A stretch of DNA of 64,000 bases, taken from the NCBI GenBank assembly GCA_963771525.1, contig CAVYTL010000001.1, forward strand, positions 202,457-266,456. The letters run 5' to 3'. The notes beneath the pieces were generated by a model. That model was not told the DNA's origin. It saw only the letters and a list, made by a program, of their open reading frames with translations, and did no database searches. Made by a program: the position numbers and the translations under genes. Below, piece by piece: positions 8,887 to 48,351 of this stretch. The stretch comes from Vulcanimicrobiota bacterium. Its GTDB lineage: Bacteria > Vulcanimicrobiota > Vulcanimicrobiia > Vulcanimicrobiales > Vulcanimicrobiaceae. The number at the start of each line of letters is the position of its first letter. The first letter of the stretch is position 1.

Positions 8887-8942
8887 CCGGCCCGGGCACT
8901 TCGGCACGCCGGCGGCGCGTCTCTGCCGGCAGGCAAGCGGCT

Positions 8943-8969
8943 TCGGGAAGCGGCCCGGTCTGCCGATAT
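8943..8969 (+). promoter_or_regulatory. Possible sigma28-type promoter for rfbF
   Basis: Exact GCCGATAT -10 at 8962-8969; -35 is poor (TCGG at 15-nt spacing). Confidence 0.4.
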
Positions 8970-9009
8970 GTAACAGGATGCACAGTGTCCCCGCGCGGTG
9001 GGGCGCCCG

Positions 9010-9783
9010 GTGAAGGCCGTCATCCTCGCCGGCGGCCTCGGCACGCGGATCAGCGAGGAGACCACGACGCGCCCGAAGCCGATGATCGAGATCGGCGGGC
9101 GCCCGGTGCTCTGGCACATCATGAAGACGTACTCCGCGCACGGCATCAACGATTTCGTCGTGTGCTGCGGCTACAAGAGCTACGTCGTGAAAGAATACTT
9201 CGCGAACTACGCGCTGCACGCGTCCGACGTGACGTTCGACATGCGCGACCGCTCGATGCGCGTGCACAACTCCGCGGTCGAGCCATGGTGCGTGACGCTG
9301 GTCGACACCGGCGACGAGACGATGACGGGCGGCCGTCTGCGCCGCGTGCGCGACTACCTGGACGGCGAGCAGACGTTCTGCTTCACGTACGGCGACGGTC
9401 TCTCCGACGTCGACGTGCGCGCTTCGATCGCGCACCATCAGTCGTCCGGCGCGATCGCGACGATGACGACGGTGCAGCCCCCGGGCCGCTTCGGTGCGGT
9501 GCGGCTCGAAGAGGCGAAGATCGTCGCGTTCGACGAGAAGCCGCAGGGTGACGGCGCCTGGATCAACGGCGGGTACTTCGTGCTCTCGCCCGGCGTGTTC
9601 GACTACCTCGCCGGCGACGACACCATCTGGGAACGGGACCCGCTGGAACGTCTCGCCGCCGGCGGCAAGCTCTCGGCTTTCGTGCACCGCGGCTTCTGGC
9701 ATCCGATGGACACGCTGCGGGACAAGACGCTGCTGGAGGATCTGTGGTCGAGCGGGCGGGCGCCCTGGAAGGTCTGGGCGTGA
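9010..9783 (+). CDS. rfbF: Glucose-1-phosphate cytidylyltransferase
   Basis: [55 protein letters not shown]. Confidence 0.96.
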
Positions 9784-11594
9784 ACGACGCCGCGCACGCG
9801 CCGCTGATCTCGGTGCTGATCCCGAACTACAACTACGCCAAGTACGTCGGCGCGGCCGTCGAGAGCGCGTTGGCGCAGACGTATCCGAACGTCGAGGTCG
9901 TCGTCTCCGACAACTGCTCGACCGACGGCGCGTGGGAGCTGCTGAACGAGCGCTTCGGCGAGCATCCGCGCGTGCGGCTGAACCGGAACGCGACGAACAT
10001 CGGGATGGCGCGCAACTTCGACCGGCTCCTGGAGCTCGCGCGCGGCGAGTTCGTGCTATGCCTCTCGTCCGACGACTTTCTGCTGCCTCCGCATCTCGAG
10101 CGCCTCGCGGAAGGCTTCCGCCGCGACCCCGCGCTCGACGTCGTGTGGTGCAACGCGTACTTCGCGCGCGAGGACGGCACCGTGTACGCCACGCGCGCGC
10201 TCCCCGGGGAGTTCCCGGTGTCGTACAGCGACGCGCGCGACGAGCTCGTCGAGAACTTCACGACCGTCTGTCCCGTCTGCTTTCCGTGCGCGCTCTTCAA
10301 GCGCGCGACGCTGCTCGAGCCCGGGATGTGCGGCGATCCGGTCAACGGCCAGGATGCGCGCGACTGGGAAGTGATCATCCGGCTCGCGCTCGCCGGCAAG
10401 CGGTTCGCCTACATCGCGCAGCCGAGCATGGCGATCCGGCTGCACGGCGATCAGTTCAGCGGCGACCTGTACCACCGGACCGGCCGCAACGTGATCGACT
10501 TCGCCTCCTACGTCGAGCGCTACATGGACCATCCCGGGTTCGTGCGACGCATGCGCGGGCACGAGGCGTACGTCGCGCGGTTTCTACGCTCGCTCGTCGC
10601 GGGCGCGGTGCATCGCAACGCGGGAGTATCGCCGTTCGACGCCGCGCAGGACGCGTGGTTCGCGGCGCTCGCCGCACGCCTCGATGCGCGCGGCGCCGCC
10701 TACGAGCCAGCCCGCGTGCGCGAGTCGAAGATCAGCGTCGTGATGCAGACCGCGGGCTCCCCGCGCCCGCTGCTCGACGCGCTCGATTCGCTCCGCGCGC
10801 AGACGTTCGCGAACTGGGAGGCCGTCATCGTCGATCACGGCCGGATCGACTGCGAGGCCCTGCTACGCGCGCACCCGGCCTGGCCGCGCACGTCGTACGT
10901 GCGGCTTCCGGCGCCGGTAACCGTCGGCGCCGCGCGCAACCTCGCCCTGCGCATGGCACGGGGCGAGTATCTCGCATTCCTCGATCCGGACAATCGCTTC
11001 GCGCCGGAGCACCTGCAGTCGGCCGTCGATGCGATCGTGCGCTCGGGCGCGGTGGCGACGTTCGCCGGTTCGCGCCTCGTCGTCGAACGCACGGATGCCG
11101 TCGCGCTCTCGCCGGAGCGCATCGGCGACGCGCCCTACGGCGGCGGCGAGCCGGATCTCGCGCGGCTGACCGTCGCGCACGCGATCCCGCTCGACGCCTT
11201 CGTCATCTATCGCGGCGCGCTCGCGCGCACGGGCACGTTCAACGCGAGCGTTCCGTCGCTGGACGATTGGGACTTCGCCATGAACCTCGCGCGCGCCGTG
11301 CGCTGCGTCCCGACGGGCGACATCACGCTCGACGTCGTCGCGCGCCTCGACCTCGCCGCGCAGCGGCTCGCGGCATCCTATCCGTCGTATCTCGTCGTGC
11401 TCGATGCGCTCTATGCGGCGCATCCGGTCGACGCCGCGCTCGCGGACGCGCGCGCCGGCCATCGCGCCGCGGTCGCCGAGGCGCTCGGCGCGGCAGGCGA
11501 CTGGGTGCGCGAACCGCGCGGGCTCGTCGCGTTCATGCACGCGCTCGCCGGCCGCGCCGGCGCGGCGCCGTTGCGCCTCGCTCAGCCCGCGTAA
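9780..11594 (+). CDS. Glycosyltransferase with two tandem family 2 domains
   Basis: [21 protein letters not shown], then [26 protein letters not shown]; GTGA-coupled to rfbF. Confidence 0.9.
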
Positions 11595-46305: not shown

Positions 46306-46844
46306 CCGAGACGGGCTACGTGCGCCGCGAGAAGCGCGTCGTGTACGAGAACCCCTGGCTGCGCTTCGAGGCGCACGACATCGTGCACCCGACCGGAGTC
46401 GCAGGGGAGCACGGCGTCGTCGTCACGCCGCGCGCGAGCGCGGTGGTGCTCGTCGACGGCGGCGACGTGCTGCTCACGCGGCAGGCGCGCTTCGCGATCG
46501 ACCGCGTCGTGCTCGAAGCGATCAAAGGCGGCCGTCACCCGGACGAGGACGGGCTCGCGTGCGCGCAACGCGAGTCGCGCGAGGAAGCGGGCATGATCGC
46601 GGAACACTGGACGGCGCTCGGGCAGGTCTACGAGATCCCTTCGATCGTACAGGAGCCGGTCGAGCTATTCATGGGTGCGGGCTTGCGCGCCGCGCCGCTG
46701 CCCCCGGAAGCGGTCGAACGCATCGAGGTCGTTCGCATGCCGCTCGCCGACGCGCTCGATGCCTGCCTTCGCGGCATCATCGACGACGCCGTCACCGCCG
46801 TGGCGTTGCTGCGCGCACGCGCCGCGCTCGAGCGCGTGACGTGA
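46302..46844 (+). CDS. NUDIX hydrolase
   Basis: Nudix box GGRHPDEDGLACAQRESREEAGM. Confidence 0.9.
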   Translation: MTETGYVRREKRVVYENPWLRFEAHDIVHPTGVAGEHGVVVTPRASAVVLVDGGDVLLTRQARFAIDRVVLEAIKGGRHPDEDGLACAQRESREEAGMIAEHWTALGQVYEIPSIVQEPVELFMGAGLRAAPLPPEAVERIEVVRMPLADALDACLRGIIDDAVTAVALLRARAALERVT

Positions 46845-47191
46845 GCAAACGCACGAACCCGAAGAGCGTCGTCGCGACGCTGCGGACGCGCGCGCTATCC
46901 TTCCCGGGAGCCTGGGAAGACCATCCGTGGGGCGACACCGTCGTGAAGGCCGGCAAAAAGATCTTCGCGTTCCTCGGCGACGCGTCGATCACGCTGAAGC
47001 TGACCGAAGCGCACGAGGCCGCGATGTCGGTTCCCGGCGCGAAGCCGACCGCATACGGGCTCGGCAAGGCGGGCTGGGTGACGCTCCCGCTCGATGCCGG
47101 CGCGCCGCCCGTGGACGTGCTGTGCGACTGGCTCGACGAAAGCTATCGCAACATCGCGCCGAAGAAGCTCATCGCGCAGCTCGAGACGTAG
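46841..47191 (+). CDS. MmcQ/YjbR-family protein
   Basis: PGAWEDHPWG..VKAGKKIFAF, YGLGKAGWV, WLDESY..APKK. Confidence 0.9.
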   Translation: MSKRTNPKSVVATLRTRALSFPGAWEDHPWGDTVVKAGKKIFAFLGDASITLKLTEAHEAAMSVPGAKPTAYGLGKAGWVTLPLDAGAPPVDVLCDWLDESYRNIAPKKLIAQLET

Positions 47192-47636
47192 CGTCGATCC
47201 ATGCGCGGAGCACGCCGTCGGCGTCGTCGCGCGGCGTCCACGGCGCGTCCGGCAGCGAGAACTCCAGCACGAGGCCGTTCGGATCGACGACGTACACGTG
47301 CTCGTCGTTCGGGCCGTCGTGATACTCGATCCAGTGCTCGGCGTTCGCGCGCTCGACGCGGCCGCGCATCGCCGCGACCGCGTCGGACGAGTCCAGCGTG
47401 ATGCCGACGTGGCGGATGTCGCGCGGCAGGCCGTCGGGGTGCGGGCGCGCGATCCCCGCGTAGGAGAAGAAGTCCACCTCGACGCCGCAGACGTCGTACA
47501 CGGCCATCACGTAGCGCCCGTTCCACGTCGAGCTGTCGCCCGAGCGTGCGAGCTTCAGCGTCGCGCCGAGCACGTCCGTGTAGAACCGGTGCGTCGCCTC
47601 GACGTCGAAGGCAGGGTGCGCGACGTGTCCGATCAT
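47169..47636 (-). CDS. VOC/glyoxalase-family protein
   Basis: HVA...DVEAT.RFYTDVLG, RHVGI, YVVDPNGLVLE. Confidence 0.88.
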   Translation of the reverse strand: MIGHVAHPAFDVEATHRFYTDVLGATLKLARSGDSSTWNGRYVMAVYDVCGVEVDFFSYAGIARPHPDGLPRDIRHVGITLDSSDAVAAMRGRVERANAEHWIEYHDGPNDEHVYVVDPNGLVLEFSLPDAPWTPRDDADGVLRAWIDATSRAAR

Positions 47637-48268
47637 GACGATACCTCCGGAGGCGACGCCTTCGCGCTCCACAGGTGCTCCGGCGTGCCGAGGGCGTGGT
47701 TGATCCATCGCGACCACACGAAGAGCGCGTCGGAGAGACGGTTCACGTAGCGCACGGCGTCCATGGAAATCTCCTCGCCGTTCTCACGTGCGCCGATCAG
47801 GAGGCGTTCGGCGCGGCGGCACACCGTGCGCGCCTGGTGCAGAAAGCCCCCGGCGTACGATCCGCCCGGGTGGATGAAGTTCGCCAGCGGCTCGAGATCC
47901 CGCTGCGCGCGGTCGATCGCGCGCTCCAGCGCCGTCGCGTCGCTCGCGGAGGTCAGCGGCATGCCCTCCCACCGGTCCTTCGGCAGCGTCGCGAGGTCGC
48001 TGCCGAGGTTGAAGAGGGCGTCCTGCGTCCACGCCAGCCAGGCATCGAGCTCGAGCGCGACCTCGCTCGCCCGCGCCGCATCGCTCGGCGATCCGCCGCG
48101 CGCGACGTCCGCGAGCGCCGTGCGCGCGAGACCGATCACCGACGAGAGCTCGTCGATCGTGCCGTACGCCTCGATGCGCAGCGCGTTCTTCTTGACGCGC
48201 TGCCCGCCGACGAGTCCGGTCGTGCCGTCGTCGCCGGTACGCGTGTAAATGCGGGTCAGCTTGGGCAT
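47633..48268 (-). CDS. PduO-type cob(I)alamin adenosyltransferase
   Basis: IYTRTGDDGTT, AYGTIDEL, ARTVCRRAER, YVNRLSD. Confidence 0.95.
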   Translation of the reverse strand: MPKLTRIYTRTGDDGTTGLVGGQRVKKNALRIEAYGTIDELSSVIGLARTALADVARGGSPSDAARASEVALELDAWLAWTQDALFNLGSDLATLPKDRWEGMPLTSASDATALERAIDRAQRDLEPLANFIHPGGSYAGGFLHQARTVCRRAERLLIGARENGEEISMDAVRYVNRLSDALFVWSRWINHALGTPEHLWSAKASPPEVSS

Positions 48269-48351
48269 CTGCCGACCGCTTCGGCTCGCGCCGCACACAT
48301 CTTTGCCGACCAGGACGCCCCTCGGGATTCCCGAACCCGGGGCGTTTGGTC

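Follow-up and report, generated by a model that had tools for sequence, protein, structure and literature searches.

A bipartite AGGA/CGAA motif placed directly before start codons in a Vulcanimicrobiota genome: a candidate SigH promoter class

SigH is the transition-state and sporulation sigma factor of the Firmicutes, and the leaderless messenger RNAs (mRNAs) of Actinobacteria and Deinococcus are made from TANNNT promoters of the primary sigma factor. Peat, boreal and Antarctic soils contain abundant Eremiobacterota (WPS-2), a phylum with almost no cultured members; a literature search found no description of their transcription signals, promoters or SigH function. Here we analyse a recurring motif, AGGA followed after a short spacer by CGAA, in a window of 64,000 nucleotides (nt) from a Vulcanimicrobiota bacterium (GCA_963771525.1, here genome G000; main contig C1, positions 202457–266456) and in the whole assembly to which it belongs, of 3.74 Mb and 70% guanine plus cytosine (GC). 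The closest matches of its prolyl-tRNA synthetase, at 69–88% identity, are in metagenome-assembled genomes labelled Candidatus Eremiobacterota, WPS-2, Ca. Elarobacter and Vulcanimicrobiota.

The SigH promoters of Firmicutes have a −35 element AGGA and a −10 element GAAT with a spacer of 17–18 nt (PMC12456013, PMC7438776). In Sporomusa sphaeroides they serve 322 transcription start sites (TSSs), 16% (PMC12456013). Ten SigH promoters tabulated for Clostridioides difficile, counted by eye, read AGGA-N16-17-(C/A)GAAT, several of them with CGAAT, and the distance from GAA to the TSS is 6–10 nt, mostly 8–10 nt (Table 3 of PMC7438776). The present motif resembles the promoters of Bacillus subtilis, C. 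difficile and S. sphaeroides in its −35 AGGA, its GAA core and the 17–18 nt from AGGA to GAA. We hypothesise, with a probability of about 0.6, that it is a promoter class read by SigH, abutting start codons and giving leaderless or near-leaderless mRNAs, and that SigH serves here as a second general sigma factor.

That the motif recurs and has a defined position before start codons is confirmed. An earlier sequence-only reading of the window had proposed the pattern RRRA-N16-CGAA about 10 nt before start codons. The bare pattern is not enriched in the window (8 matches vs 11.95 in shuffles), and its placement therefore had to be tested. Here the proposal stands, the placement being far from chance: in four of the eight matches, a gene that leads an operon starts 10–13 nt farther on. 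Genes were called genome-wide using a simple codon-usage model that is blind to upstream motifs; of the 3256 called, the 1671 with an upstream gap of at least 60 nt are here termed leading. CGAA peaks at −17 to −13 from the start codon (22, 31, 37, 31 and 27 occurrences per position vs about 11), and a purine-rich AGGA/GAGG peak is seen at −39 to −34, distinct from the Shine-Dalgarno peak at −14 to −8. A screen for dyads, in which upstream regions were compared with their own reverse complement and no seed motif was used, gave among its top results AGG-N18-GAA (43 forward vs 10 reverse), AGG-N18-GAAC (21 vs 1) and AGG-N17-CGAA (22 vs 2). There are 74 matches to AGG-N18-GAA within 90 nt of a start, and 29 of them end 9–12 nt before it. 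At these four offsets (9–12) AGGA-N16-CGAA has 5 perfect and 23 one-mismatch matches, as compared to about 0.03 and 0.6 per offset elsewhere. When the spacer may be 16, 17 or 18 nt long, matches to at least seven of the eight core positions that end 8–14 nt before a start number 90, vs about 16.5 expected from other offsets.

The sequence-only reading had given the spacing as exactly 16 nt and the −35 element as RRRA, and both need revision. Enrichment extends over three spacer lengths, 16, 17 and 18 nt (33, 26 and 31 sites, respectively, vs about 5–6 expected), and is far weaker at 13–15 and 19 nt. Among 122 selected sites the −35 core has A in 87, G in 111, G in 116 and A in 96; these sites were chosen on their matches, and the independent support for the −35 element is the AGG-N18-GAA dyad together with the peak at −39 to −34. 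In the −10 element GAA is conserved and is preceded by C. The distance from CGAA to the start is 9, 10, 11 or 12 nt in 24, 26, 29 and 20 of the 122 sites, and the refined consensus is (A/G)GG(A)-N16-18-CGAA-N9-12-RTG.

A block position weight matrix (PWM) gives an excess of about 175 of the 1671 leading genes over control offsets, and the CGAA peak taken alone an excess of about 90 genes. We put the share of the motif at about 100–175 leading genes, or 6–10%. At a PWM score of at least 8, about a quarter of the matches are expected by chance, and the PWM excess is partly circular because the offsets tested include those of the training sites. No such circularity affects the dyad screen, the counts by offset, the orthologue alignments or the tRNA set described below. 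De novo expectation maximisation with a zero-order background drifted to CG-rich low-complexity motifs and was replaced by the dyad screen and the offset controls. A genome-wide count of the pattern with no regard to gene context was swamped by coding-sequence periodicity and was uninformative.

In the window, the sequence-only reading had listed six sites. On re-reading the sequence, each is present at the same position and at the same distance from its gene, and Pfam upholds the six gene identities (AAA_22/ExeA-like, 5'-3' exonuclease, LytS-type His_kinase, amino-acid permease, PduO-type adenosyltransferase and prolyl-tRNA synthetase). The sites and the genes of the strongest three are as follows.

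48312–48335, forward strand: proS promoter candidate; −35 AGGA at 48312–48315, N16, −10 CGAA at 48332–48335; 8/8 core positions
48346–49815, forward strand: proS, prolyl-tRNA synthetase; Pfam tRNA-synt_2b, HGTP_anticodon and ProRS-C_1
48280–48303, reverse strand: promoter candidate of the PduO-type adenosyltransferase gene; AAGA-N16-CGAA, 11 nt to ATG 48268; 7/8 core positions, PWM 10.1
47633–48268, reverse strand: PduO-type cob(I)alamin adenosyltransferase gene; Pfam Cob_adeno_trans, E = 2e-53
44101–44124, forward strand: amino-acid permease promoter candidate; GGGA-N16-CGAA, 10 nt to ATG 44135; 7/8 core positions, PWM 11.5
44135–45661, forward strand: amino-acid permease gene; Pfam AA_permease_2, E = 3e-49
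40122–40145, forward strand: candidate promoter of the LytS-type histidine kinase; TGAA-N16-CGAA or CTGA-N17, 10 nt to GTG 40156; PWM 8.6, marginal
20651–20674, reverse strand: candidate promoter of the 5'-3' exonuclease; GGAA-N16-CGCA or GGGA-N17-CGCA, 10 nt to GTG 20640; PWM 7.4, marginal
8900–8923, reverse strand: candidate promoter of the ExeA-like ATPase; GAGA-N16-CGAA, 13 nt to ATG 8886; 6/8 core positions, weak

The proS, permease and pduO sites are strong, and that of proS has the highest score in the window (PWM 15.1). The LytS and exonuclease sites are marginal: in LytS the −10 element and its distance are right and the −35 element is poor, while the exonuclease has a variant −10 element, CGCA. 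The exeA site is weak. Our gene caller starts exeA at GTG 8907, unlike the ATG 8886 of the sequence-only reading, which we presume from the N-termini of ExeA proteins to be the likelier start. The start of proS is ambiguous between TTG 48346 (10 nt past CGAA) and ATG 48352 (16 nt past it). Alignments with relatives begin at residue 7, and close relatives retain the sequence TTGgtcATG; ATG 48352 is therefore favoured over the TTG originally chosen.

The proS site is conserved. Of 15 Eremiobacterota loci, which come from several named families, 14 keep AGGA or AGGC, a spacer of exactly 16 nt and CGAA, and the sequence of the spacer differs in each. The motif is absent from one proS locus (L016), which has a lower GC content and is labelled Eremiobacteraceae. 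For the permease, an alignment made by eye (the loci of genomes G121 and G132, flagged as unpublished, were left out) shows (A/G)GG-N16-17-CGAA-N10-12-ATG in about 14 of 19 orthologues from the same family, at 66–86% identity, again with variable spacer sequence. By eye, a −10 element (CGAA or CAAA) is seen at the matching place upstream of pduO in some relatives. The motif signal is also present in a 400-kb sample of G062, a genome of 63% GC from the distant family f20, where the −10 variants xGAAx, GAAT and CAAA occur. The pduO and proS promoter candidates are divergent and lie back to back (48280–48335) with their −35 boxes 8 nt apart; in one close relative (L004) they appear, by eye, to overlap on opposite strands.

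The motif is not confined to protein genes. The PWM, which was trained on protein genes only, matched 12 of the 59 transfer RNA (tRNA) and transfer-messenger RNA (tmRNA) genes, with CGAA 10–22 nt before the mature 5' end, while ten other windows of equal size gave 0–3 matches each. Since tRNA genes have no start codon, the element must be a signal for transcription and not for translation. Its two short boxes always have the same orientation and lie at about −35 and −13 from the start codon, separated by a spacer of 16–18 nt that is free in sequence. On the basis of this anatomy, the phylogenetic footprint and the tRNA set, we take the motif to be a promoter. A further possibility, that AGGA is the Shine-Dalgarno sequence of a mis-called upstream start, was rejected: AGGA is not followed by a start codon, and orthologues keep its exact spacing to CGAA.

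The 20 top-scoring annotated targets have mixed functions, and six of them have no Pfam match at the threshold used. They include an ATP-dependent DNA ligase, a UDP-glucose dehydrogenase, an acyl-CoA synthetase, FtsW/RodA and a 2-oxoacid:ferredoxin oxidoreductase, together with a carboxyltransferase, TldD, a sodium:solute symporter, GNAT and FHA proteins and a BTAD regulator. With proS and the tRNA genes added, the list suggests a general role and not one specific to stress.

The genome encodes 17 members of the sigma70 family: RpoD, two of SigB/F/G type, two of FliA/WhiG type, about eleven extracytoplasmic function (ECF) factors and a single SigH equivalog, located as follows.

C1 81843–82490 (L094:1396–2040, forward strand): sigH, 215 residues; above the NCBIfam cut-offs

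SigH scores 340.5 bits against TIGR02859 (cut-off 294.8) and 360 against NF006148 (cut-off 208), and is 75–96% identical to many metagenomic proteins named SigH by their sources. Of the 121 genomes sampled from the phylum, 110 have a member of the family over the cut-off, and 89 of the 90 of good quality have a match; among 14 control genomes B. subtilis alone is over the cut-off. Upstream of the gene are ispF, a cysE-like gene, cysS and the gene of an rlmB-type methylase; a study of gene neighbourhoods groups ispF, cysE, cysS and rlmB with sigH in B. subtilis (PMC3814617). The likeness to the Firmicutes thus includes a cognate sigma factor gene near cysS-rlmB, and in Sporomusa also a large regulon. 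The motif is probably of the SigH promoter class, and the SigH-like factor that the sequence-only reading had suggested gains support from the single equivalog and from the published promoter geometry. The T and the AT-rich flanks of the Firmicute −10 element would have been lost in a genome of 70% GC.

Three observations were made close to sigma factor genes. The called start of the gene just downstream of sigH (C1 82596–82931, reverse strand) is preceded, at 13 nt, by AGGA-N16-CGAT. A cluster of tRNA-Tyr, tRNA-Gly and tRNA-Thr genes lies near sigH (C1 83229–84548), and its tRNA-Tyr has AGGA-N17-CGTA 20 nt before the 5' end. Upstream of rpoD (C1 1368096–1368165) AGAG-N17-CGAA is found by eye about 45 nt before the start, and may represent a member of this promoter class with a leader; in C. 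difficile, sigA2 has a SigH promoter (PMC7438776).

The specificity of RpoD itself seems ordinary. The 16S rRNA promoter (L001:3390–3425, reverse strand), which was found by eye, reads TTGACT-N17-TAGTCT with a second TTGACT close behind; a scan with the sigma70 consensus missed it, its −10 element matching TATAAT at only 3/6 positions. In addition, TANNNT starting exactly at −12 is found before 22 leading genes, vs about 4 at other offsets. Leaderless genes with ordinary primary-sigma promoters therefore also exist. The leaderless genes of Actinobacteria and Deinococcus are like those proposed here in having a −10 element at a fixed distance before the start, no Shine-Dalgarno sequence and ATG or GTG starts. 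However, there the −10 element is TANNNT and is read by the housekeeping sigma, while here that class is small (an excess of about 18 genes at −12) and the putative alternative-sigma class is several-fold larger.

The geometry predicts very short leaders. If the distance from GAA to the TSS is that seen in C. difficile, a distance of 9–12 nt from CGAA to the start would correspond to a leader of about 0–3 nt, and the leader of proS, given the position of its start, could be as long as about 6 nt. GGAG or GAGG occurs at −17 to −5 in 6% of motif genes, vs 17% of other leading genes and 24% of genes within operons. The start codons of the 122 motif genes are ATG in 70, GTG in 48 and TTG in 4, so that TTG is depleted (3% vs 10%). 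The proposal of leaderless or near-leaderless mRNAs made in the sequence-only reading is in keeping with this geometry and with the three-fold depletion of Shine-Dalgarno sequences. For comparison, leaderless genes number only about 15 in the whole of C. difficile (PMC7438776).

On the basis of these observations, we propose the following mechanism. The SigH orthologue would read (A/G)GG(A)-N16-18-CGAA, with CGAA as a GC-rich version of the Firmicute GAAT. The −35 element would lie about 35 nt and the −10 element about 12–15 nt before the start codon, a placement that implies transcription from the start codon itself or from 1–3 nt before it, in proS perhaps 5–6 nt. The resulting mRNAs would be leaderless or nearly so and would need no Shine-Dalgarno sequence. 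The class would serve about one fifth of tRNA genes and about 6–10% of transcription units, housekeeping and metabolic ones alike. During growth RpoD, which would keep its canonical TTGACA/TANNNT promoters, would be joined by SigH as a second general sigma factor. The second housekeeping factor of the sequence-only reading is in this sense supported by the share of leading genes, their mixed functions and the tRNA genes. In a bolder form, SigH would be a growth-phase general sigma in part of the Eremiobacterota, reading about one tenth of transcription units and one fifth of tRNA genes, with nearly all of its coding promoters fused to the start codon as a separate leaderless channel; we regard this form as tentative, plausible in outline and still somewhat doubtful as a whole.

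Other readers of the motif have to be considered. One of the approximately eleven ECF factors might autoregulate its own gene and control a large regulon through it. ECF promoters (of the GGAAC-N16-CGT type) are likewise bipartite, with a spacer of about 16–17 nt and a −10 element that starts with CG, and two ECF genes carry the motif: AGGT-N16-CGAA-N10-ATG at C1 1845390 and AGGC-N17-CGAA-N13-ATG at C1 3445522. However, the AAC that is the hallmark of the ECF −35 element is missing (the base after AGGA is C in 48, G in 32, A in 26 and T in 16 sites), the −10 element is CGAA and not CGT, and CGTA occurs in only 1 of 122 sites. Both of these ECF genes have orthologues in the class only (families f1–f3): in other families, f20 among them, one has no match at E 1e-30 and the best matches of the other are 27–40% identical, although the motif is present in f20 (G062). 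Genes for tRNAs and proS would also be odd targets for an envelope-stress factor. We consider this explanation unlikely. We would give equally little weight to a reading by some other sigma factor, whether RpoD through a second, non-canonical class or one of the two SigB/F/G-type or two FliA/WhiG-type factors. The −10 sequence of FliA promoters, GCCGATAA, does contain CGA at a similar spacing. On the same side, a sigma70-based promoter predictor often gives incomplete lists for Eremiobacterota (ProFinder preprint). Against it, RpoD looks ordinary from its canonical rRNA promoter and the TANNNT peak. FliA needs TAAA at −35 and CGAT at −10, where the motif has AGGA and CGAT is found in 2 of 122 sites, and the targets are not flagellar or motility genes. 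The consensus sequences of the SigB/F/G group are also unlike AGGA/CGAA.

It is also conceivable that the motif is no promoter at all, but a site at which a regulator binds, or a signal for translation initiation in place of the Shine-Dalgarno sequence. The fixed distance from motif to start codon and the missing Shine-Dalgarno sequence would be explained in this way. The 12 tRNA matches, however, precede genes that are not translated, two half-sites 16–18 nt apart in a single orientation with a free spacer are the anatomy of a sigma70-family promoter, and the 3' end of the 16S rRNA keeps an ordinary CCUCC anti-Shine-Dalgarno sequence. We therefore regard this as very improbable.

Several points weigh against the assignment to SigH or against leaderless transcription. 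We infer SigH as the reader from the likeness of the motif and the presence of the gene. Unlike the promoters of the Firmicutes, the −10 element here has neither the T nor the AT-rich flanks, T following GAA in 14 of 122 sites and so not being favoured. The motif at the two ECF genes could mean that an ECF factor regulates its own gene. Genome G003 (family f6, 57% GC) has SigH, but in a 400-kb sample of it AGGA does not peak at −35 and a strong Shine-Dalgarno peak precedes the starts; the presence of SigH does not therefore imply the start-abutting arrangement. A universal link between SigH and leaderless genes was not found, and the arrangement is not phylum-wide. Farther upstream of starts the motif shows no excess over the reverse strand, and leadered promoters of the class are not detectable there. 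In proS, the 12–16 nt from CGAA to the conserved ATG across loci indicate a short leader and not its absence. Finally, all gene starts come from our own crude caller, and that of exeA at least is probably misplaced.

As compared to the Firmicute examples, what is new here is probably the phylum, the −10 sequence, the fusion to the start codon and the tRNA targets: this is a different, non-sporulating candidate phylum, its promoter candidates are sited directly on start codons, and tRNA genes are among the targets. SigH predates endospore formation or is independent of it, and its regulon can be broad. With its candidate sigma factor, the second promoter class amounts to a testable, first promoter model for the Eremiobacterota, which should improve the calling of start codons in genomes of 70% GC and supply parts for genetic tools. 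If the assignment is true, an alternative sigma factor tied to leaderless mRNAs would connect the choice of sigma factor with the mode of translation initiation; we know of no description of such a link, and our literature search found none. It would also mean that a leaderless channel, independent of Shine-Dalgarno sequences, could be switched as a block at the levels of both transcription and translation.

A very abundant short dispersed repeat, GTCATCCTGAGC-(N2-4)-GTCGAAGGGC, was noted in the course of this work. Its 12-mer, which contains CGAA, has 345 copies in the 3.74 Mb. In the window it is found at 14388, 14463, 19398 and 54290–54362, the last with five copies 18 nt apart. It lies within 80 nt upstream of 43 leading genes, and in 11 of these its CGAA falls at −16 to −13 from the called start; it may be a carrier of half a promoter, or a source of spurious open reading frame starts. 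The motif signal is not an artefact of this repeat, being unchanged once the genes adjacent to it are removed.

Some genes of the main contig are repeated on small contigs of G000. The pairs are C4 51176–52747 and C1 3535566–3537137, C9 1004–1774 and C1 1696482–1697252, and C7 20987–24184 and C1 1411753–1412520. The upstream promoter regions of the two copies are identical or near-identical, and the copies could represent assembly redundancy or recent duplication.

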